Assembly (NCBI GenBank): GCA_902779565.1
Contig: CACZCD010000006.1
Span: forward strand, 11,413-75,412
Length of the DNA stretch: 64,000 nucleotides
DNA from: an uncultured bacterium
GTDB lineage: Bacteria; Verrucomicrobiota; Kiritimatiellia; RFP12; UBA1067
Direction: 5' to 3'
Every line of letters starts with the position of its first letter. Positions within the stretch are counted from its first letter, which is position 1. A program made the translations under genes and the position numbers. Shown here in pieces: positions 6,964-58,493 of the stretch. The notes under the pieces were generated by a model that saw only the letters and a program-made list of their open reading frames with translations, was not told where the DNA came from and did no database searches.

Positions 6964-8508
6964 ATGGCACAGAAGACGATAGGCGCCGCTGTGGGCGCGT
7001 GCGCGTTTGCGGCGCTTGTGGTGCTGCCGCTGTGGATATGGTACGGCTGGCGGATCGAGCCGGAGAACGGGCAGATCGCAATCCTGCTGAAAAAGACAGG
7101 GCGCAATCTGCCGCCCGAGGCGATTCTCGCCCCCGGGCCGGAGTACAAGGGCATTCAGGAGGAAGTGCTTCCAGAGGGCCGCCACTTCCGGAATCCTTGG
7201 ACGTGGGAATGGCATTACGCGAAGATGGTGGATATTCCCGCCGGAAAGTTCGGCGTGTTGGTGCGCAAGTTCGGCAAGGACCTTCCGGAGGGTGAGATCC
7301 TCGCGCGCGACGGCACGCGCGGCATTCTGCGCGATGTGCTCGGTACCGGCAAGCACCGCATCAACCCTTACGCCTACGATGTGAAGGTGTATGACGACAT
7401 CACCATCAAGCCCGGCCATGTGGGGGTTGTCACGGAGTTGACGGGTGACGATATCCTTGCCGCAGGAGGTGCCAAGGCACCCGAGACCGGATCCGGTTTC
7501 CTCGTGAAGCCGGGCGCAAAGGGAGTCTCTCCCCGCATACTCAAGGAGGGCACGCACCGGCTCAACCCGTTCGTCTATTCCGTTTCGATCGTGAACATCC
7601 AAAGTCAGCGGTTCGAGCTGAGCGGGGCGGACGCGATCTCGTTCCTCACGCTCGACGGCTTCACGGTGAACGCCGAGGGCACGCTTGAGTTCAACATCGA
7701 CGTTGACAAGGTGGCGCTCCTTTCGCATGAGGTGGGTGACATGGACGACATCCTGCAGAAGATCGTCCTGCCGGCGGCACGCGGCTTCTCGCGCATTGAG
7801 GGCAGCAAGAAGAACGCCACGGAGTTCATCGTGGGCGAATCGCGCCAGGCGTTCCAGAACTCGCTGGAGAAGTACCTGAAGGACGTCTGCAAGCCGTGGG
7901 GCGTGTCGCTCAACTCCGTGCTGATCCGCGACATCTTCGCGCCGCAGGAGGTGGCGGCGATCATCCGCCAGCGCGAGCTCGCCGTGCAGGAAGGGCTCAA
8001 GATCGAGCAGCAGATCGTGCAGGCGAAGTCCCAGGCCGAGCTTGAGAAGCAGAAGGCGCTCGCGGCGCAGAACAGCGCGCGTGTCGCCGCCAACACGAAG
8101 TCCATCCAGGCGAAGATCGCCGCCGAACAGGCGAGCGTGGAGAAGGTGGTCGCCGCCCAGACGCAGCTGGAGGTGGCCGAGCGCGAACTGAAGGCCGCGC
8201 AGGCCGATGCCACCGCGAAGCTGACGGTGGCCGAGGCTGAGCGCAAAGTGGTGGAGGTGCGTACCGTGGCTGAGGCGGATGTGCTGAAGCAGGAGGTCGC
8301 GGCTTACGGCGGTGAAGCCAACTACGTGCGGGCGAAGCTGTACGAGAAGACCGCTCCGCGTCTGCGCGACGTGGTGACGGGTGATTCGCCGGGCGAGATA
8401 TTCGGTCTGCCGATTCGGGGAACGGGGAATGGGGAACGGGAAACGGGGAACGGGAGATCTCAATCCCCAACTCCCAACTCGCAACCCATGAAAGGAGGTG
8501 CGAAATGA
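6964..8508 (+). CDS. SPFH/band-7 (flotillin-like) membrane protein with triplicated N-terminal beta module and C-terminal coiled coil
   Basis: N-terminal TM, three repeats of the G..ILA..G...GV.....G.H..NP pattern, SPFH-like core, long Ala/Glu/Lys coiled coil; start refined to MAQKT with a GGAG RBS; C-terminal tail encoded by a G-rich tract. Confidence 0.8.
   Translation: MAQKTIGAAVGACAFAALVVLPLWIWYGWRIEPENGQIAILLKKTGRNLPPEAILAPGPEYKGIQEEVLPEGRHFRNPWTWEWHYAKMVDIPAGKFGVLVRKFGKDLPEGEILARDGTRGILRDVLGTGKHRINPYAYDVKVYDDITIKPGHVGVVTELTGDDILAAGGAKAPETGSGFLVKPGAKGVSPRILKEGTHRLNPFVYSVSIVNIQSQRFELSGADAISFLTLDGFTVNAEGTLEFNIDVDKVALLSHEVGDMDDILQKIVLPAARGFSRIEGSKKNATEFIVGESRQAFQNSLEKYLKDVCKPWGVSLNSVLIRDIFAPQEVAAIIRQRELAVQEGLKIEQQIVQAKSQAELEKQKALAAQNSARVAANTKSIQAKIAAEQASVEKVVAAQTQLEVAERELKAAQADATAKLTVAEAERKVVEVRTVAEADVLKQEVAAYGGEANYVRAKLYEKTAPRLRDVVTGDSPGEIFGLPIRGTGNGERETGNGRSQSPTPNSQPMKGGAK
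8417..8455 (+). repeat. G-quadruplex-type tract (GGGGAAY)n in-frame at the 3' end of SPFH gene 1, followed by a C-rich tract
   Basis: GGGGAACGGGGAATGGGGAACGGGAAACGGGGAACGGG, encoding GTGNGERETGNG. Confidence 0.8.
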
Positions 8509-37839: not shown

Positions 37840-38460
37840 ATGAAAAACGTGATTGATTTCGTGCGAGAGGTTCTCTTCTACGGCGCAGCCTGTTTGGTGT
37901 GGTCAGGGGTTGTACTCCTGGATGTCATGGTATTCAAGACCAATTGCGCAGAAAACGGCATTGTGGAGTCAAGTCAGCTTGTGGCGATTTTCGCAAGCGG
38001 TGTGTTGCTGATGGTGACGGCGGTGAAACATTCCGACAAGAGAGCGGGACTCGTCCTTGCCGGCGCATTCTTCATTGCGATGGCCATACGGGAGTTGGAC
38101 CAATTTTGGGATGGCGTCTGGCATGGCTTCTGGATAGTCCCGGAAATTGCCTTTTTGTCCGTAGTGGCTGCTTTTGTTCTATTCCACCGCAAAACAATTC
38201 ATCCTGGATTGAAAACTATCGCGGGAGATCGCGACTCGTCCGCTCTTTCCGTAGGAATTCTGATTGTTATGGGTTTTTCCCGAATCATCGGGCACAAGGC
38301 ATTCTGGAGGCTGCTTGCGCCGGGAGGTTCGTTTACAGTTCCGAAACGCTTCGCCGAGGAATCGTGCGAGTTGATAGGCTATTTTATTATTCTTGCATGG
38401 GCGATGAGATTCTTCTCACGCATGAGGGCTGAAAGAAAAAATGAAAATCGGGATCTATAA
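37840..38460 (+). CDS. integral membrane protein, hypothetical
   Basis: About 5 predicted TM helices. Confidence 0.5.
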   Translation: MKNVIDFVREVLFYGAACLVWSGVVLLDVMVFKTNCAENGIVESSQLVAIFASGVLLMVTAVKHSDKRAGLVLAGAFFIAMAIRELDQFWDGVWHGFWIVPEIAFLSVVAAFVLFHRKTIHPGLKTIAGDRDSSALSVGILIVMGFSRIIGHKAFWRLLAPGGSFTVPKRFAEESCELIGYFIILAWAMRFFSRMRAERKNENRDL

Positions 38461-39451
38461 AGACACTCTCGCCAATCGCCGTGGGGCGGATATGGCGGTG
38501 GAGAATCTCGCGTCTGCGCTTCAGGAGCGCGGCGCGAGATTTGGGGAACGGGGAATGGGGAGCGGGGAATGGGAAGTTGTCCTATTTGAGGAGCGCGAAT
38601 TCGAGGCTCGCATGAACGAACGGTGGGATGTCGTGATTTCCACCGGCACTAACGAACTCCTCGACCTCTACGACTATTTTTCTGTACGATCGACACGTTC
38701 TACACGGCTACCCCTATCCCCCGTTCCCCATTTCCCATTCCCCATAATCCAACAATTCCACACCAACCCCAAGAGCCAATTCAAGTGGAAACGGTTCGTC
38801 CGAAACTGGAAGATCAGAAGGGCGCTGCGCCACGTTGCCGCGATTCAGGTGTTGCGTGAAGAGGTCGTGCGGCAAGTTGCGAAGTATGGGCCGCCGGTTT
38901 CGGTGATCGGCAACTGGAGCGAATGGGAGGGACGGGCGCGGATGGAGCCGCCGAGGGGCCAGACAATTATCTATCCCGCCGTTTGGGGCAGGGGCAAGAA
39001 TCAGCGTCTTGCCGTAGAATCATTCGCTTCGGTTTCAAAGGATTTCCCGGGATGGTCGCTTGAACTCTATGGCAACGGGACTCCAACCTTCCCGCTGCCA
39101 GAGGGGGTGGTGCATAAAGGCTACTGCGATTTGGGTGCGGTTTATGCCTCCTGCGCATTTGTTGCATTTCCGTCGCTTGACGAGGGCTTCCCGCTGACGC
39201 TTGTTGATGCCGCAGCATTCGGCCGCCCGGCCGTTACAGTGTGCGATTGGGTCGGGGCCGCCGCCGTTGGCGGCGGAATCGTCGCCGAACCGACGGTCGC
39301 CTCCTATTCTGCCGCATTGCGGCGATTGATGTCCAGCGAAGAGCTGAGGTGCGAGATGGGAAGGGTCGCAAACCGATTCTGCCTGGAACGGTACTCCCGG
39401 AAGGTCATTTTGGACAAGTGGGAAACTTTGCTTGAAAGTGTGGTAAAATAG
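38441..39451 (+). CDS. glycosyltransferase family 4 (GT-B fold), N-domain carrying in-frame G-rich and C-rich repeat insertions
   Basis: C-terminal GT4 pattern (E..FP, FP.L.EGF, G.P.V); insertions at 38543-38574 and 38711-38744. Confidence 0.7.
   Translation: MKIGIYKDTLANRRGADMAVENLASALQERGARFGERGMGSGEWEVVLFEEREFEARMNERWDVVISTGTNELLDLYDYFSVRSTRSTRLPLSPVPHFPFPIIQQFHTNPKSQFKWKRFVRNWKIRRALRHVAAIQVLREEVVRQVAKYGPPVSVIGNWSEWEGRARMEPPRGQTIIYPAVWGRGKNQRLAVESFASVSKDFPGWSLELYGNGTPTFPLPEGVVHKGYCDLGAVYASCAFVAFPSLDEGFPLTLVDAAAFGRPAVTVCDWVGAAAVGGGIVAEPTVASYSAALRRLMSSEELRCEMGRVANRFCLERYSRKVILDKWETLLESVVK
38543..38574 (+). repeat. G-quadruplex-type tract GGGGAACGGGGAATGGGGAGCGGGGAATGGG, in-frame
   Basis: Encodes RFGERGMGSGEW. 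Confidence 0.8.
38711..38744 (-). repeat. same (GGGGAAY)n family in inverted orientation (C-rich on + strand), in-frame
   Basis: CCCCTATCCCCCGTTCCCCATTTCCCATTCCCC. Confidence 0.8.
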
Positions 39452-41529: not shown

Positions 41530-41604
41530 ATGAACGGACAGTTTAAGTTTGCGTGGTATTACTACTTCGGGTTTACGACCCGGAGCGGTTGCTCGCATGC
41601 TTGA
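41530..41604 (+). CDS. attenuator leader peptide MNGQFKFAWYYYFGFTTRSGCSHA (8 aromatic residues in 11)
   Basis: AAGAAGG RBS, ATG, run of F/W/Y codons, stop; followed by an alternative-hairpin region and a terminator. Confidence 0.6.
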   Translation: MNGQFKFAWYYYFGFTTRSGCSHA

Positions 41605-41634: not shown

Positions 41635-41671
41635 GACCCCGCTCCAGAAAAGAGCGAGGTCGTTTTTGTTT
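41635..41671 (+). terminator. attenuator terminator GACCCCGCTC-CAGAAAA-GAGCGAGGTC-TTTTTGTTTG
   Basis: 9 of 10 bp stem plus U-run; upstream GGAGCGG (41583-41589) can pair with CCGCTCC of the 5' arm as an antiterminator. Confidence 0.6.
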
Positions 41672-41710: not shown

Positions 41711-42721
41711 ATGATCATCATATTGAAGAAGGACGCAGACCCCAAGCAGGTCGAGAGCCTTGTGAAGTGGCTGAAGGACCGCCACATCACGCCCAACATC
41801 AGCACCGGCGAGCGCGAGACGCTTATCGGCTGCATCGGTGACGTTGCGAAGATGGATATCGGTCTCGTTCAGGCGTTGAGCGTGGTCGAACGCGTTCAGC
41901 GGATCCAGGAGCCGTACAAGGCGGCGAACCGCAAGTTCCATCCCGAGGATTCGGTGGTGGATTGCTCCGGGGTGAAGATCGGCGCCGGGAACTTCCAGGT
42001 GATCGCCGGTCCCTGCAGTGTGGAGTCCGTGGAGCAGATGGTGGGGATCGCCAAGAGCGTGAAGGCGGCCGGCGCCACGCTTCTCCGGGGTGGTGCGTTC
42101 AAGCCGCGCACTTCGCCCTACGCGTTCCAGGGACTCGGCCAGCGCGGAATCGAGATCCTCCTTGAGGCGAAGAAGGAGACGGGGCTTCCCATCGTCACGG
42201 AGCTGATGAGCATCGAGCATCTGCCGCTCTTCAACGATGTGGACGTGATCCAGATCGGGGCGCGGAACATGCAGAACTTCGACCTGCTCAAGGAAGTGGG
42301 GTCGATGACGAAGAAGCCGATCCTTCTCAAGCGCGGCATGAGCGCCACGCTTCAGGAACTGTTGATGAGCGCGGAGTACATCATGGCGAGCGGCAACCCG
42401 AACGTGATGCTCTGCGAGCGCGGCATCCGCACGTTCGAGACGGCGATGCGCAACACGATCGATCTCACGGTGATCCCGATGCTGAAGCGTCTTTCGCATC
42501 TGCCGGTGGTGATCGATCCGAGCCACGCGACCGGCTACTCGTACCTCGTGGAGCCGTGCGCGATGGGCGCGACGGCCATGGGGGCGGACGCCCTCATCAT
42601 CGAGGTCCACAACGATCCGGCGCACGCCCTCTGCGATGGCGTGCAGAGCCAGACGCCTGAGATGTTCGCAGAGATGATGCAGAAGATCAACGCGCTGCGA
42701 CCCTATGCGTGGAAGAGGTGA
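41711..42721 (+). CDS. aroF: 3-deoxy-7-phosphoheptulonate (DAHP) synthase, type I-beta with N-terminal ferredoxin-like regulatory domain
   Basis: KDO8PS/AroA(Q)-family (beta/alpha)8 pattern ([24 protein letters not shown]). Confidence 0.9.
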
Positions 42722-42727
42722 TAACTG

Positions 42728-43016
42728 GTAGGTAATGTCGTAAAATTTGGGAAGATATCATGGGAAAACAGGGAGAGATTCTGGGGGCAGGAAGAAGTTA
42801 TGGGAAAACAGGAAGAGATTATGGGAATACAGGATGATATTACGAGAATGCGGAGTAAAAACTCCCCCTCTAAGATAGAGGGGGTGGCCGGAGGCCGGGG
42901 GAGTATGACGGGGGACGGAATCATACCCCTTCGCCCCTTCGGGGCACTCCCCCTGTCTCAGGGGGAGAGTTTGACATGCCATACCCAACTGTGTGACATT
43001 ACCAACTGATAACTGA
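42728..43016. mobile_element. MITE-like insertion: 9-bp direct repeats TGATAACTG, about 12-bp TIRs GTAGGTAATGTC/GACATTACCAAC, three 21-nt tandem repeats and three GC hairpins
   Basis: Seen in sequence between the aroF stop and pheA; contains a TTGACA -35-like box near its right end. Confidence 0.45.
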
Positions 43017-43061
43017 TAGATGATAACTGACAGATGATAACAGAAGGAGGAGAGACAAGAG

Positions 43062-44207
43062 ATGAATCTGAATGAGATACGGAGCGAGATTGATGCGATC
43101 GACGGCGAACTCGTGAAACTGTTCGTGCGGCGGATGGAAGCCTCCGAGAAGGTCGCGGCGGCGAAGCGCGGGAGCGCGACGCCTGTCCAGGATCCGGCTC
43201 GTGAGCGCGAGATCCTTGCGAAGGTTGCGAAGGCTGTTGGGCCGGACTTCGAGAACGAGGCGCGGCTCCTCTTCACCACATTGATGTCGATGTCGCGGGG
43301 ACGTCAGCGCGCCGAGTTGGCGGCGGACAACGCTTTCGTGAAGGAAATCGCCGCCGCAATCGCCTCCACGCCCGACCGCTTCCCTTCGTCTGCGACGGTC
43401 GCCTGCTCCGGTGTGGAGGGTTCCTACTCGCAGCAGGCCGTTTGTCGGCTCGTGCATTTTCCGACCATCTTCTACTTCAAGGGGTTTGATGACGTGTTTG
43501 CCGCCGTCGAGAAGGGCATGTGCGACTATGGCGTGTTGCCGATCGAGAACTCGGCGGTCGGCAGCGTGACCGCCGTCTATGACCTGATGGCGAAGCACCA
43601 CTTCAAGATCGTGAAGGCGATGAAGCTGCGCATCCGGCATGTGCTGCTCGCCGCGCCGGGCGTGAAGTTCGCGGATGTGAAGGAGATCTCGAGCCATCCG
43701 CACGCGCTGGCGCAGTGTTCGGCGTTCCTGCGCGAACAGCCCAATATCCGCGCGGTGCCGGCGACCAACACGGCGGCGGCCGCCGCGGAGCTGGCGAAGT
43801 CCGGCCGCCGCGACATGGCGGTGATCGCCTCGCGCGAATGCGCGGAGTTGTACGGGCTTGACGTGATCCGCGACGACATCGCGAACATCACAAGCAACTA
43901 CACGCGCTTCATCTGCATCTCGAATCGCGACGAGATCTATCCCGATGCCGACAAGTTTTCGGTGATGATGAGCCTGAACCACCGCCCGGGCGCGCTGACG
44001 GATGTCCTCGTGAAGTTCGCCGCCGCCGGGGTGAACCTCACGAAGCTCGAATCGCGTCCGGTGCCCGGTTCGGACTTCGAGTTCCGCTTCATCTTCGACT
44101 TCGAGGCGTCACCGCGCGATCCGCGTGTGGTGAAGATGCTCGCCGGCTTCACGGTGGATCCGGAGATCGAGCATTTCACGTTCCTTGGTGCTTACTCCGA
44201 AAGGTGA
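43062..44207 (+). CDS. pheA: chorismate mutase / prephenate dehydratase (P-protein) with ACT domain
   Basis: CM domain, PDT, ACT; strong AGGAGG RBS. Confidence 0.9.
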   Translation: MNLNEIRSEIDAIDGELVKLFVRRMEASEKVAAAKRGSATPVQDPAREREILAKVAKAVGPDFENEARLLFTTLMSMSRGRQRAELAADNAFVKEIAAAIASTPDRFPSSATVACSGVEGSYSQQAVCRLVHFPTIFYFKGFDDVFAAVEKGMCDYGVLPIENSAVGSVTAVYDLMAKHHFKIVKAMKLRIRHVLLAAPGVKFADVKEISSHPHALAQCSAFLREQPNIRAVPATNTAAAAAELAKSGRRDMAVIASRECAELYGLDVIRDDIANITSNYTRFICISNRDEIYPDADKFSVMMSLNHRPGALTDVLVKFAAAGVNLTKLESRPVPGSDFEFRFIFDFEASPRDPRVVKMLAGFTVDPEIEHFTFLGAYSER

Positions 44208-50698: not shown

Positions 50699-51046
50699 AT
50701 GACGATAGCAGATGTAGTGAAGGTTCTGAACGGAAAACTGATGGCAGGCGATGCGGCGAGTCCGCGCGTGGTCGGTGCCGTGGTGGCGAACGACCTGATG
50801 AGCGACGTGCTGCTTTTTGATGCGGACGATGCGCTCCTGCTCACGTCGCTCGCGAGCGACCAGGCGATCCGCACGGCGCACATCGTGGGCGCGATGGGCG
50901 TGGTAGTGCACAACGCAAAGCCGCTTTCCGAAACGATGATCAAGGTCGCGAACGATCTCCATATCCCGCTCGTGTCGTCGCCGCTCTCGAAGTACGACGC
51001 GTGCGTGAAGATGCATGACGCCCTGGAGATGGAGAATAGAGCTTAG
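50699..51046 (+). CDS. DRTGG domain protein
   Basis: 115 aa; DRTGG-like pattern with conserved Asp/Gly positions. Confidence 0.55.
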   Translation: MTIADVVKVLNGKLMAGDAASPRVVGAVVANDLMSDVLLFDADDALLLTSLASDQAIRTAHIVGAMGVVVHNAKPLSETMIKVANDLHIPLVSSPLSKYDACVKMHDALEMENRA

Positions 51047-51086
51047 TGGCTAGTGGTTAGTGATTAGTGGTTAGTGGATAGTGGCT
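51044..51086 (+). repeat. six tandem heptamers TAGTGGC TAGTGGT TAGTGAT TAGTGGT TAGTGGA TAGTGGC
   Basis: Begins at the TAG stop of the DRTGG gene and ends 1 nt before the ATG of the CBS-GHKL gene. Confidence 0.85.
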
Positions 51087-54796: not shown

Positions 54797-57607
54797 ATGA
54801 AGACGCTGTGCGTGATTGACTTGATGCCGTTTCTGTACCGGGGGCACTTCGTGTTCCTCACCAAGCCGCGCATCACCTCCACAGGTCTCAACACGTCGGC
54901 GCTGATCGGTTTTGTGAACGGCGTGCTGGCGGTTCTCAAGGAGCTGTCGCCCACGCATGTGGCGCTCGCGATGGATCCAGACGGTCCGACGTTCCGCCAT
55001 AAGGCGTATCCCGACTACAAGGCCGGACGCGAGAAGATGCCCGAGGATCTTGCCGCCAACATCCCCTATTCCTTTGAGGTCGCCGAGGCGCTGAACATCC
55101 CGGTGGTGCGCGTGAGCGGCTACGAGGCGGACGATGTGATCGGCACGCTCGCGGCGCGCGCCGAGGCTGACGGGTTCGATTCAATCTATGTGGTGACGCC
55201 CGATAAGGACGCCGCCCAGCTCGTGACGCCGCGCATCAAGCTGTTCCGTCCGGGACGGGGTTCGGCACCGTTCGAGGTGTTGGGCATCGACGAGGTGAAA
55301 GAGCATTGGCACCTGACCGATCCGCGCCAGATGATCGACTACCTTGCGCTCGCGGGCGACTCCTCCGACAACATTCCGGGCATTAAGGGCATCGGCGAGA
55401 AGTCGGCGGCGAATCTGCTGGCCACATGGGGTTCGATTGAAGAGCTTCTTGCGCATGGGGATGAGATCGCGGGCAAGACCGGCGAGAAGGTGCGTGCCGG
55501 AGCAGAGGACGCGAAGATGTCGAAGTTCCTCACGACGATCCGCACCGACGTGCCGGTTGACATCGGCTGGGACGCCTGTCGCGTGACGCCGCCGGATCGG
55601 ACGAAGCTCTCGGCGGTCTGTCTCAAGTATGAGCTCTTCAGTCTTGCGAAGCGCTTCGAGATCTCCCTGTCACCGGCAAACGTGCCGGCGGAGCGGAAGG
55701 GACCGACCGGTCCCGAGGTGACGACCGCGCTGCGGACGCTCGCCGATACGCCGCACGACTACCGGCTTGTGACGACGCGGGAGGGAGCGCGGGAGCTGGC
55801 GGCGATTCTTGAGGCCGCGCCGCGCTTTGCGTTCGATACGGAGACCACCAGCACCGACGCGCGGACGGCTGAACTTGTGGGCATGAGCTTCGCGACGGAG
55901 CCGGGGCGGGCGTGGTACGTGGCCGTGCCGCATGGCAGCGACCCAGTGTCGGACGGCGATTTGTTCTCGCTTGCGCCGGCAGGGGCGTCCGGGACGGACG
56001 CGCGGGACCTCGTGCAGGTTTTTGCGAAGGCGTTTGCCGATCCGTCAAAGACGCTTATCGCGCAGAACGCCAAGTTTGACATCACTGTGCTCAAGCGCTA
56101 TGGCATTTCGTTCGGTTCGACGGTGCATGACACGATGCTCGCGCACTATGTGCTGGACGCCGCCGCGCGGCACGGCATGGACGCGATGGCCCGCGAGCGG
56201 CTGGGGTACGTGACCATTCCCATTGAGGATCTGATCGGCGCGAAGGAGCGGGGCAAGCCGCAGCGGAACATGGGCGAGCTTCCGCCGGAGGAGGTGAAGG
56301 ACTATGCCGCCGAAGATGCCGATGTCACGCTGCGGCTGGAGGATTCGCTGCGGCCCACCGTGAAGGAGGCGGGGCTGCTGCCGGTACTGGAGGAGAGCGA
56401 AGAGCCGTTGGTGGCGATTCTCGCGGAGATGGAGTCCGTGGGCGTGAAGATCGATGTCGCCGCGCTGCGCGCCTACGGCATGTCGCTGGACCGCGAGATC
56501 CAGGGATTGCTTTCGTCCATCCACGCCTGTGGCGACCCCGGTCTGAACGTGGATTCGCCCAAGCAGATCGGTGAACTGCTCTTCGACAAACTGAAGCTTG
56601 ATCCCACCGGTGTGAAGCGTACCTCGACGGGGCAGTGGGCCACCGATGAAAAGACGCTCCAGAGCATCGTGGGTCTCCATCCCGTCGTGTTCGACATCCT
56701 CGAATACCGCGCCTGCTCGAAATTGAAATCAACCTACGTGGAGAAGCTGCCGCAGTGCATCGATCTGGCGGATGGACGCGTGCATACGACCTTTGCGCAG
56801 GCGCTCACGGAGACGGGGCGTCTCTCGTCGAGCGACCCGAACCTGCAGAACATCCCGGTGCGTACCGACCGCGGCAAGAACATCCGCGCGGCGATCGTGC
56901 CACGCGACGCGAACCATCTGCTCGTTTCCGCCGACTATTCGCAGATCGAACTGCGTCTGATGGCGGCGATGAGCGGCGACGCGGCGATGAAGGACGCGTT
57001 CGCGCGTGGCGAGGACATCCACCGCGACACGGCGGCGCGTGTCTTCAGCATTCCGGCCGCCGAGGTGACACCGGAGCAGCGCTCGAAGTGCAAGATGGTG
57101 AACTTCGGCATCATCTACGGCATCTCCGCGTTCGGTCTTGCGCAGCGGCTCAAGGTCACGCGCACCGAGGCGGCGTGTCTGATAGAAACCTACTTCAAGC
57201 TCTATCCCGCCGTGCGCCAATACATGGACGAAGCAATCGCCAAGGCGCGCGCGACCGGCTACGCCGTGACGCTCACGGGACGTCGCCGCACGCTCCGCGA
57301 CATCAGTTCCCGCAACGCGACGGCACGTCAGGCGGCGGAGCGCGACGCCATCAACACGCCCGTGCAGGGCACGGCGGCGGACATGATCAAGATCGCGATG
57401 GTGCGCGTGGACCGGGCGCTGAAGAAGGCGGGGCTGAAGGCGAAGATGGTGCTGCAGATCCACGACGAACTGCTCTTCGACGTGCCGCGCGACGAGGTCG
57501 AACAGGTGAAGGAGATCGCACGGCGCGAGATGGAGTCCGCGATGGATGTCGGCGTGCCGCTCGAAGTCTCCGTGGGCGTCGGCGAGAATTGGCTTGAGGC
57601 GCATTGA
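54797..57607 (+). CDS. polA: DNA polymerase I
   Basis: 5'-3' exonuclease, 3'-5' exonuclease, and family A polymerase motifs A/B/C (DYSQIELR, RR.AK..NFG..YG, QIHDEL). Confidence 0.95.
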   Translation: MKTLCVIDLMPFLYRGHFVFLTKPRITSTGLNTSALIGFVNGVLAVLKELSPTHVALAMDPDGPTFRHKAYPDYKAGREKMPEDLAANIPYSFEVAEALNIPVVRVSGYEADDVIGTLAARAEADGFDSIYVVTPDKDAAQLVTPRIKLFRPGRGSAPFEVLGIDEVKEHWHLTDPRQMIDYLALAGDSSDNIPGIKGIGEKSAANLLATWGSIEELLAHGDEIAGKTGEKVRAGAEDAKMSKFLTTIRTDVPVDIGWDACRVTPPDRTKLSAVCLKYELFSLAKRFEISLSPANVPAERKGPTGPEVTTALRTLADTPHDYRLVTTREGARELAAILEAAPRFAFDTETTSTDARTAELVGMSFATEPGRAWYVAVPHGSDPVSDGDLFSLAPAGASGTDARDLVQVFAKAFADPSKTLIAQNAKFDITVLKRYGISFGSTVHDTMLAHYVLDAAARHGMDAMARERLGYVTIPIEDLIGAKERGKPQRNMGELPPEEVKDYAAEDADVTLRLEDSLRPTVKEAGLLPVLEESEEPLVAILAEMESVGVKIDVAALRAYGMSLDREIQGLLSSIHACGDPGLNVDSPKQIGELLFDKLKLDPTGVKRTSTGQWATDEKTLQSIVGLHPVVFDILEYRACSKLKSTYVEKLPQCIDLADGRVHTTFAQALTETGRLSSSDPNLQNIPVRTDRGKNIRAAIVPRDANHLLVSADYSQIELRLMAAMSGDAAMKDAFARGEDIHRDTAARVFSIPAAEVTPEQRSKCKMVNFGIIYGISAFGLAQRLKVTRTEAACLIETYFKLYPAVRQYMDEAIAKARATGYAVTLTGRRRTLRDISSRNATARQAAERDAINTPVQGTAADMIKIAMVRVDRALKKAGLKAKMVLQIHDELLFDVPRDEVEQVKEIARREMESAMDVGVPLEVSVGVGENWLEAH

Positions 57608-57662
57608 TCTCTCCCGATCCCTCTGCGCCTCTGCGTCTCTGCGGGAGATAAAACAACCACCT

Positions 57663-58493
57663 ATGCTAACGACTATGGATGATATCCTTGAGCGGCTCGA
57701 GAATACCCTTGCGGAACTGCTTGCCGAGACGCGCCCGGCGACGCTCTTCAAGGCGATGCGCCATGCCGTTCTGGGTGGCGGCAAGCGGATCCGCCCGCAG
57801 CTCTGCCTCGCGTCGGCGGCCGTGGTGGGCGGACGCGCAGAGGATGCGCTCTATCCCGCCTGCGCCATCGAGCTTCTGCACAGCTACACGCTGGTCCATG
57901 ACGATCTGCCGGCGATGGACAACGACACAACGCGTCGCGGGAAACCCAGCGTGTGGGCGGCATTTGGCGAAGCAACAGCGATCCTCGCGGGCGATGCGCT
58001 TCAGGCGTTGGCGTTCCAGACGGCGGCGCGTGCCCCGCGCAACGGTGAGAAGATTCTGGCGGCGCTCAGCGAAGCCGCTGTCGGCGTGGTGTGCGGCCAA
58101 TCCGAAGAACTCTCCGCCCCCAGCTCACAACCCTCAACTCACAACCCTTCAACCTTTCAACCTTTCAACCTTTCAACCTTTCCACCAGACACCGACTTCA
58201 TCTATCGTCACAAGACAGCCGATCTGTTTATCGCGGCTGCGGTGATGGGCGCGTATGCCGGTGGCGGCACGGAGACTGATGTGGCACGTCTGCGTGAATA
58301 CGCACTCAATCTCGGGTTGGCGTTTCAGTATGAGGACGATCTTTTAGATGGTGATGTGGGCTTCCCCCCAGAAGAGGCCAAGCGCCGCATCGCCGACCAT
58401 ACAGCGGCCGCCCTGGCGTCGTTGGACGGTCTTCCGGGCGACACCGCATTCCTATCCGCGCTCGCGCACCGCCTTGCGCGGCGCACCGCCTGA
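57663..58493 (+). CDS. ispA: (2E,6E)-farnesyl/geranylgeranyl diphosphate synthase with an in-frame low-complexity insertion
   Basis: First DDxxD motif LVHDDLPAMDND and second-motif region; about 14 extra aa between GQ and KT, encoded by a CAACCYT repeat. Confidence 0.85.
   Translation: MLTTMDDILERLENTLAELLAETRPATLFKAMRHAVLGGGKRIRPQLCLASAAVVGGRAEDALYPACAIELLHSYTLVHDDLPAMDNDTTRRGKPSVWAAFGEATAILAGDALQALAFQTAARAPRNGEKILAALSEAAVGVVCGQSEELSAPSSQPSTHNPSTFQPFNLSTFPPDTDFIYRHKTADLFIAAAVMGAYAGGGTETDVARLREYALNLGLAFQYEDDLLDGDVGFPPEEAKRRIADHTAAALASLDGLPGDTAFLSALAHRLARRTA
58122..58178 (+). repeat. C/A-rich tandem repeat (CAACCYT)n, in-frame in ispA
   Basis: CTCACAACCCTCAACTCACAACCCTTCAACCTTTCAACCTTTCAACCTTTCC. 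Confidence 0.8.

Follow-up and report, generated by a model that had tools for sequence, protein, structure and literature searches.

A probable miniature inverted-repeat transposable element in the aroF-pheA spacer of a rumen Kiritimatiellia aro operon

The aromatic amino-acid (aro) operon in a 64-kb stretch of a rumen Kiritimatiellia genome (contig CACZCD010000006.1, positions 11,413 to 75,412; hereafter the window) raises the question of what came to lie between aroF, the gene for 3-deoxy-D-arabino-heptulosonate 7-phosphate (DAHP) synthase, and pheA, the gene that follows it. [quoted passage not shown] We compared the spacer with orthologous junctions and with dispersed copies of the same element, which are designated below by the labels of the compared loci (L-numbers). 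On this comparison, positions 42731-43003 are very probably one copy of a family of non-autonomous DNA transposons, i.e., MITEs, of rumen Kiritimatiellia.

Borders, target duplications and dispersal of the element

The borders of the element proper (42731-43003, GGTAATG...CATTACC, 273 bp) were set by comparing copies. The terminal inverted repeat of 21 nt is imperfect, with about 74% complementarity over 23 nt in the window copy. The start consensus GGTAATGTCGCAAAGTTGGGG and its complement at the far end recur in all 17 sequences that we extracted with both ends. The 12-nt termini proposed earlier, namely GTAGGTAATGTC at 42728 with an inverted counterpart at 42995-43006, do exist (three matches versus 0.13 expected by chance), but the ends begin with GG at 42731 and not with GTA at 42728. 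The proposed flanking duplication is likewise real but measures 8 bp rather than 9 bp. The 9-mer put forward in its place, TGATAACTG, is found at 42719, 43007 and 43021 (three matches versus 0.10 expected); as a target duplication it is ruled out, the true duplication being the 8-mer that abuts the ends. It is made up of the heptamer array and the duplication read three bases out of register, and its recurrence is due to the GATAACT-type heptamer array into which the insertion fell. What had been noticed at the right flank as "partial copies" of GATAACTGA is this same array, which existed before the insertion and served as its target.

Across the family, the flanking 8-mers agree at all eight positions in six copies (L082, L092b, L113, L121, L177 and L200) and at seven of eight in the window copy, L092a and L098. 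Thus, 9/16 copies show a duplication of at least 7/8, versus 2.2% of 408 offset controls. All ten clear duplications begin with AA and most of them finish with TA. L113 (AAGGTTGA) and L200 (AATTTTTT), both with perfect duplications, lie outside repeat arrays, and the periodicity of the arrays therefore cannot be the cause; moreover, an array of period 7 would imitate a 7-bp repeat and not an 8-bp one. When the element and one 8-mer are deleted from the window, an unbroken heptamer register is obtained (GATAACT GGTAACT GATAGAT GATAACT GACAGAT), and the same deletion restores the heptamer register in L082. The element inserted into a simple heptamer array by which the aroF stop codon and the ribosome-binding site of pheA had already been moved apart.

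The junction is polymorphic among relatives, and it includes orthologous aroF-pheA junctions that lack the element, a comparison that the first-pass annotation had proposed. Two loci with an aroF 99% identical to that of the window (L217 and L218) have a 220-nt spacer with unrelated 7-8-nt arrays, which differ between the two, and no element. In L219 (aroF 93% identical) and L002 (85%) the aroF stop lies 2 nt from the pheA ATG, and in L003 (75%) the junction holds a 15-nt tandem array only. In L213 and L216 both junctions are those of the window copy, the 21-nt units are more numerous, the right-hand linker is another one and the array is longer; that the window and L213 copies share a site and yet differ in this way may point to gene conversion between copies. 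The likely history leads from a tight aroF-pheA junction via array growth to insertion of the element. Along this path, a coupled gene pair, 2 nt apart in relatives, would have been pushed 340 nt apart, by arrays first and then by a mobile element, with the operon not visibly destroyed.

Arrays of 7-8-nt units fill many intergenic spacers (units GGGGAAY, CCCAACT, CCCCATT, TTAGTGG, GATAACT, CAACCTTT, GATTGGAG and CAACTAC), and they are entirely different between strains with 99% identical aroF. Some also lie in frame inside open reading frames (ORFs), such as a glycosyltransferase (GT4-type) ORF at 38441-39451 and an ORF at 57546-58493 (array 58124-58186); in the former, two arrays (38543-38573 and 38719-38745), one of GGGGAAY and the other of its inverse, RTTCCCC, stand on either side of a normal coding stretch of about 145 nt. 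Heptamer arrays are preferred insertion sites of the MITE. At one insertion site that was recovered in two samples (L177 9187-9372 and L197 1956-2130), a CCAAACA-type array takes the place of the right end in the L197 copy, as though arrays grew into the ends of the element or deleted them.

Further copies with different flanks were traced in part through a 69-aa ORF that reads through the element. It has 11 homologs, the common part of which is encoded by the hairpin core only, with unrelated N- and C-termini. The homolog contigs place copies at a trpD-trpC junction (one contig being from the same sample as the window contig), at a trpB-trpA junction and upstream of a DUF3990 gene; the trp operon of L092 carries two copies. 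Other copies lie upstream of ispG and at a nadE-like gene, and an LptA-like and a PMT-like ORF each contain one in frame. Scanning metagenomes without regard to strand for a 21-base pattern taken from core hairpin H5 returned 115 stretches. From all loci, the 17 distinct sequences with both ends, the window copy and 16 others, represent at least 14 independent contexts, and the inverted ends and the flanking duplication are reproduced at other copies. Copy length ranges from 172 to 273 nt, most copies being of 172-208 nt, and the window copy reaches 273 nt because of its extra 21-nt units. A hidden Markov model built from family members finds a single copy in the 64-kb window. Two of the copies are in-frame insertions: that in L113 (172+8 = 180 nt) lies within the Pro/Ala/Lys linker that precedes an LptA/LptD_N domain, and that in L205 (184+8 = 192 nt) lies in a PMT-like membrane protein.

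Since gene callers predict the 69-aa ORF, since in many copies a forward frame runs across the element without a stop, and given its 11 apparent homologs, one could take it for a real small-protein gene and the spacer for coding sequence. Against this, the homologs share the core-encoded part alone and take their termini from the flanks of each copy, the lengths of element copies differ by non-multiples of three, and the ORF has no Pfam family. Its ATG belongs to the 21-nt repeat and lacks a Shine-Dalgarno sequence. A genuine gene at this position has next to no probability, and we rejected the ORF as a protein, its homologs being copies of the element. The aroF-pheA insert and its relatives thus combine inverted ends, a duplication of fixed length, small size without a transposase gene, and dispersed copies with presence/absence polymorphism, by which they agree with MITEs; the checks that the first-pass annotation had set for itself also came out on the side of a MITE.

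The interior of the element and the aro operon

From left to right, the element comprises the left end, a minisatellite, five hairpins (H1-H5), a variable linker and the right end (Table 1). The 21-nt units reported in the first pass are found at 42760, 42800 and 42821 (three versus 0 expected), and individual copies carry anything from 0 to over 6 units. Three of the hairpins had likewise been recognized from the outset: H1 and H5, both perfect, and the GCCCC/GGGGC hairpin H4; the C5/G5 hairpin pattern is seen twice in the window versus 0.03 times expected by chance. Two more were added to these, H2 (GGCC/GGCC) and H3 (GGGGGAGTATGA...TCATACCCC). The loop of H3 is enlarged by heptamer repeats in L098 and L138. 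The stem of H4 occurs as GCCCC/GGGGC, GCCGC/GCGGC or GGCGCG/CGCGCC, and a compensatory G-C to C-G swap is found at the top of H5 in L146 and L200; covariation within the family is limited to these changes. In the predicted RNA fold of the window copy (-99.4 kcal/mol, z = -2.65) the ends are paired and all five hairpins are formed.

The 21-nt unit contains AUACAGGAUGAU, which is identical at 11/12 positions to RUACARGGAUGU, the consensus for CsrA from systematic evolution of ligands by exponential enrichment (SELEX). About nine GGA motifs occur in 115 nt around 42750-42842, and the likeness to CsrA sites may be a coincidence in a purine-rich repeat. No Rfam 15 family matched any part of the window at gathering thresholds; in permissive mode, the best sub-threshold match in 42650-43100 was Atu_C7, with 20.5 bits versus a threshold of 45 and on the opposite strand.

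By Pfam, the gene order around the element is ABC transporter, DAHP synthase, pheA, aroB, aroA, aroC, tyrA and an aroE-aroK fusion. The closest species representatives by DAHP synthase are ruminant Kiritimatiellia metagenome-assembled genomes (MAGs), with 85% and 75% identity, and the exact DAHP synthase protein is also present in rumen metagenome assemblies. An ORF rich in aromatic codons and a terminator-like hairpin with a T-run precede aroF in the window, and similar aromatic-rich small ORFs precede aroF in L217, L218, L213, L219, L002 and L003. Together, the leader ORF and the hairpin with its T-run look like a leader-peptide attenuator of a Kiritimatiellia aromatic operon; the description of the DAHP synthase gene as attenuator-controlled in the first-pass annotation is therefore plausible, given this leader and the leader ORFs in relatives. 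In L220 and L221 (173-3292; DAHP synthase 89% identical) the order is pheA-aroF-tyrA and not aroF-pheA-aroB, for which reason the aro cluster is rearranged within the clade.

It had been proposed that the insert terminates or re-initiates transcription and so decouples pheA and the genes after it from aroF. No sense-strand terminator-like site was detected in the window copy; in the trpD-trpC copy, H5 followed by TTTTAT does score as a sense-strand terminator. The TTGACA box is located at 42972-42977 as described, but it is not conserved among copies, in which the same position reads GTTTGATG or GTCTTATC, and it has no acceptable -10 box. The single promoter-like hit, at the left junction, equals the shuffled expectation. 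Hence, termination or re-initiation by the element is neither supported nor excluded. On our reading, the element would be co-transcribed within the aro operon and would fold into a stable RNA of several hairpins, with the paired ends as its closing helix. The window copy would act without termination, and its main effect would be that the tight translational coupling of aroF and pheA is replaced by independent initiation at the strong Shine-Dalgarno sequence that pheA has of its own (GGAGGAG at 43046-43052, 9 nt ahead of the ATG). The alleles with and without the element constitute a natural pair for the study of polarity and coupling.

The location of the window copy in an aro operon and of others in trp operons, with two copies in L092, brings up a cis-acting structured RNA that tunes aromatic amino-acid operons and has the inverted ends as its closing stem. 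The almost invariant five hairpins, the uniform sense orientation of the orientable both-end copies (see below) and the terminator score of H5 and TTTTAT in the trpD-trpC copy are in keeping with such an RNA. However, copies also lie by or inside genes unrelated to these pathways (LptA-like, PMT-like, ispG, nadE-like and others), strains whose aroF is 99% identical lack the element, 8-bp duplications flank most copies, and mismatches in the supposed closing stem are not compensated. There is also the lack of an Rfam match, and the aro operon already has its own candidate attenuator in the aromatic leader peptide. We consider such a regulatory RNA very unlikely, and a MITE that is transcribed along with its host operon is the preferred account.

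Table 1. Coordinates of the element, its surroundings and related repeats (positions refer to the window unless a locus label is given)
Feature	Position	Strand	Remarks
Left copy of 8-bp target-site duplication (AACTGGTA)	42723..42730	+	7/8 match to 43004-43011
Left terminal inverted repeat (GGTAATGTCGTAAAATTTGGG)	42731..42751	+	Family consensus GGTAATGTCGCAAAGTTGGGG
Minisatellite, 21-nt purine-rich unit (ATGGGAAWACAGGRWGAKATT) x4.5	42750..42842	+	Tandem Repeats Finder (TRF)
Core hairpin H1 (CCCCCTCTA-AGA-TAGAGGGGG)	42864..42884	+	Invariant in 17 copies
Core hairpin H2 (GGCC-GNA-GGCC)	42886..42896	+	Variation confined to middle loop base
Core hairpin H3 (GGGGGAGTATGA-loop-TCATACCCC)	42897..42929	+	Right arm in family anatomy TCATACCCCC
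Core hairpin H4 (GCCCC-TTC-GGGGC)	42933..42945	+	Stem letters differ between copies/phyla, pairing kept
Core hairpin H5 (CTCCCCCTG-TCT-CAGGGGGAG)	42947..42967	+	Perfect
Right terminal inverted repeat (ACCCAACTGTGTGACATTACC)	42983..43003	+	
Right copy of 8-bp target-site duplication (AACTGATA)	43004..43011	+	
Heptamer array (GATAACT / GATAGAT / GACAGAT), insertion target	43004..43041	+	TRF period 7/14; length differs in L213, L216
Spurious 69-aa ORF through the element	42800..43009	+	Called as a gene in public assemblies
DAHP synthase, aroF type, N-terminal ferredoxin-like domain	41711..42721	+	Pfam DAHP_synth_1 4.7e-70, DAHP_snth_FXD 9.6e-18
pheA: chorismate mutase / prephenate dehydratase / ACT	43062..44207	+	Pfam PDT 5.4e-56, CM_2 5.1e-18
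Aromatic-rich leader peptide ORF (MNGQFKFAWYYYFGFTTRSGCSHA), upstream of aroF	41530..41604	+	24 codons, 8 aromatic residues (Phe, Trp, Tyr)
Putative attenuator in aroF leader: terminator-like hairpin, then T-run	41640..41668	+	Stem 41640-41656
Leader ORFs in relatives	L217 1313; L219 1324; L002 1713; L003 3833		
Arrays of short units in the window	8416-8485; 38543-38573; 38719-38745; 43004-43041; 51036-51084; 58124-58186		
Arrays in relatives	L217 and L218 2515-2730; L003 5008-5075		
45-nt module loci	L102 ~1257-1321; L114 5473-5519; L118 39-81; L206 8875-8929		Also L172, L108, L210 and others

Mobilisation, orientation and spread beyond the family

The ends of the element offer some indication of the enzyme that might move it. 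In the IS6/IS26 family of insertion sequences (IS), the end consensus is GGTTCTGTTGCAAA, in which G1, G2 and G7 are nearly universal, TGT at positions 6-8 and G10 are highly conserved, and variation falls mostly on positions 3-4 (PMC6807381, PMC8477213); the family produces 8-bp duplications and has two MITEs in ISfinder (PMC7986276). The element end, GGTAATGTCGCAAA, agrees with this consensus at 11/14 positions, including every conserved one, and is identical at 14/17 positions to the IS26 end of a plasmid (L211). By the resemblance of its ends and the fixed length of its duplications, the element would be mobilised by a DDE transposase supplied in trans. The ends and the duplication fit the IS6/IS26 family best, and we put their origin there at roughly an even chance; IS1 or some other DDE family would account for the rest of the probability.

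Several observations weigh against a DDE-mobilised MITE or against this choice of family. An IS1 end (GGTAATGACTCCAACTT) is identical to the element end at 13/17 positions, and 17 bases do not settle the family; IS1 makes 8-9-bp duplications. A search with the IS26 transposase (Tnp26; tblastn) of 1.3 Mb of related loci gave chance hits only. No transposase with matching ends was found, in the window itself either; a fuzzy search for further ends returned only those of MITE copies, and viral contigs scanned for the end sequence yielded 13 isolated hits, none of them paired and none with a transposase or the core. Elements of the IS26 type are reported to move through cointegrates only (PMC8477213), and simple intrachromosomal insertions in such number are hard to square with that. 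In 4/16 copies, the flanks match at no more than 4/8 positions. The core is almost invariant and the ends and linkers are variable, the reverse of the usual MITE pattern, and the mismatches between the two ends are without compensation. From the alignment of copies, the lack of compensation fits ends that serve as protein-binding sites on DNA, with the core constrained for another reason.

The strict orientation of the copies belongs with these points, as a DDE transposon does not produce it on its own. All 14 of the both-end copies that could be oriented, from 14 independent contexts, lie in sense orientation with the flanking genes (two-sided binomial ~1e-4), gene orientation having been judged by GC at the codon positions and, in several cases, backed by Pfam. 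Core-only copies without ends do occur antisense (L127, L130 and L117). Two causes of the bias were considered and discarded: the need for an open frame, as reverse frames are often open too, and an antisense terminator, as the A-run that creates an antisense hairpin plus T5 is missing from most copies (it is present in those of the window and L082). Persistence in sense only may stem from the asymmetric, AA-starting target or from selection against antisense copies.

The last point on this side is the existence of core-only copies that lack the ends and are permuted, inverted or in tandem, for which reason part of the spread may use another route. Inverted core hairpins are seen in L162 (about 240-360 and 672-729, with H1-H2 after H5) and tandem ones in L140 (5-221) and L108 (5807-5934). 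In L168 (2473-2625), a circularly permuted core lies inside an 802-aa ORF and is bounded by both arms of H3.

Such copies lead to a further reading, in which the element is a cluster of palindromes akin to repetitive extragenic palindromes (REPs) and bacterial interspersed mosaic elements (BIMEs), moved by a single-strand transposase of the Y1/REP-associated tyrosine transposase (RAYT) or IS200/IS605 type; H1, H3 and H5 would be the mobile units and the IS-like ends incidental. These three hairpins are indeed versions of one palindromic unit in alternating orientation, and besides the rearranged core-only copies there are copies of a 45-nt module alone, without ends, which lie in contigs of 32-66% GC, inside ORFs and in both orientations. 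REP/BIME units are 20-40-nt palindromes with a GTAG or CGTC tag, have an associated RAYT gene and leave no target duplication. By contrast, the hairpins here lack the tags of the known REP superfamilies, and 9/16 full copies have a target duplication, which single-strand transposition does not make. No RAYT gene turned up, although no search aimed at RAYT genes was made. We give this reading a very small probability.

The 45-nt module is the right half of the core (CCCCCTC, H4 and ACTCCCCCT-N5-AGGGGGAGA) and is also found alone in Kiritimatiellia contigs. A search pattern that contained neither CCCCCTC nor, apart from its last three bases, H4 gave 66 distinct module variants, 58 of which have a closed H4, very varied in sequence and length, and 53 of which keep CCCCCTC. 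In AT-rich contigs, 24/55 modules lie inside long ORFs (15 sense, 9 antisense). In four contigs, the module occupies the same site of an IF-2-like gene, and, both in AT-rich contigs resembling the candidate phyla radiation (CPR-like) and in others, it often adjoins further C/G-run hairpins such as CTCCCCTCCTT...AAGGAGGGG. We found neither a paper nor an Rfam family for the 45-nt module, and no relevant paper on the core strings or on Kiritimatiellae repeats. The 5' CCCCCTC mirrors the H5 arm CTCCCCC, and a parallel intramolecular triplex (pyrimidine-purine-pyrimidine) on the purine arm GGGGGAG is geometrically possible, though this is speculation. A more radical possibility is that the IS-like ends are a mere vehicle and that the core, and above all its 45-nt module, is an undescribed, cross-phylum, self-spreading structured mini-element, which together with the hypervariable heptamer arrays may mean an unknown mechanism that generates or targets repeats. 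We regard this as unlikely, if by a good deal less so than the REP-like and regulatory-RNA readings.

Comparison with known small repeats

The nearest counterparts of the element are the IS6/IS26 MITEs listed in ISfinder, namely MITEBth2 (227 bp) and MITEHarch3 (336 bp) (PMC7986276). Like them, it is short (172-273 bp here) and non-coding, and it shares the GG tips, TGT at positions 6-8, G10, CAAA and the 8-bp duplication (PMC7986276, PMC6807381). It differs from them in its Kiritimatiellia host, in an inverted repeat of 21-24 nt rather than 14, and in an interior that consists of a five-hairpin core and a minisatellite and not of an IS remnant. The palindromic elements of Rickettsia, about 150 bp long, enter protein-coding genes in frame and are translated with them (PMC10969869, a review that also names BOX and ERIC). 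The in-frame insertions in L113 and L205 resemble these, whereas most copies of the present family are intergenic within operons and have clear inverted ends and 8-bp duplications.

The Correia/NEMIS elements of Neisseria, ERIC, the pneumococcal BOX (boxA-boxB(n)-boxC) and RUP are also small, lie between the genes of operons and are predicted to form stable RNA. To our knowledge, no strict sense orientation has been reported for any of these. The modular build of the element, with a variable number of internal units, is like that of BOX; the ends of these families and the length of their duplication (TA in Correia elements) differ from those found here. A Porphyromonas gingivalis MITE is described, in PMC4596501, as containing a variable-number tandem repeat. 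On that description, the two share the possession of a minisatellite, and the phylum, the repeat unit and the ends are unrelated. As for the target sites, small dispersed repeats and MITEs (Nezha) were reportedly found by Elhai and colleagues in 2008 to be inserted in the heptamer arrays (short tandemly repeated repetitive sequences, STRR) of cyanobacteria. Here too, small mobile repeats insert preferentially into intergenic arrays of 7-nt units (GATAACT, CTAACGA, GGGGAAY, TTAGTGG and AAAGGTT), and ORFs contain arrays as well. In contrast to the cyanobacterial case, the host is a rumen member of the Planctomycetes-Verrucomicrobia-Chlamydiae (PVC) group with 61% GC, and the insert, a larger element, bears IS-like ends.

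Apart from its relationships, the family has a bearing on annotation. Gene callers make "hypothetical proteins" of 60-115 aa from the element and fuse it to real genes, and assemblies break at it, several contigs beginning or finishing inside a copy; a family model would clean the annotation of Kiritimatiellia MAGs. Set against the known systems, the insert is a genuine MITE and represents a new family, if one of a familiar type, from a phylum that has received little study; its sense orientation, its invariant core and the cross-phylum 45-nt module lie outside ordinary MITE biology.

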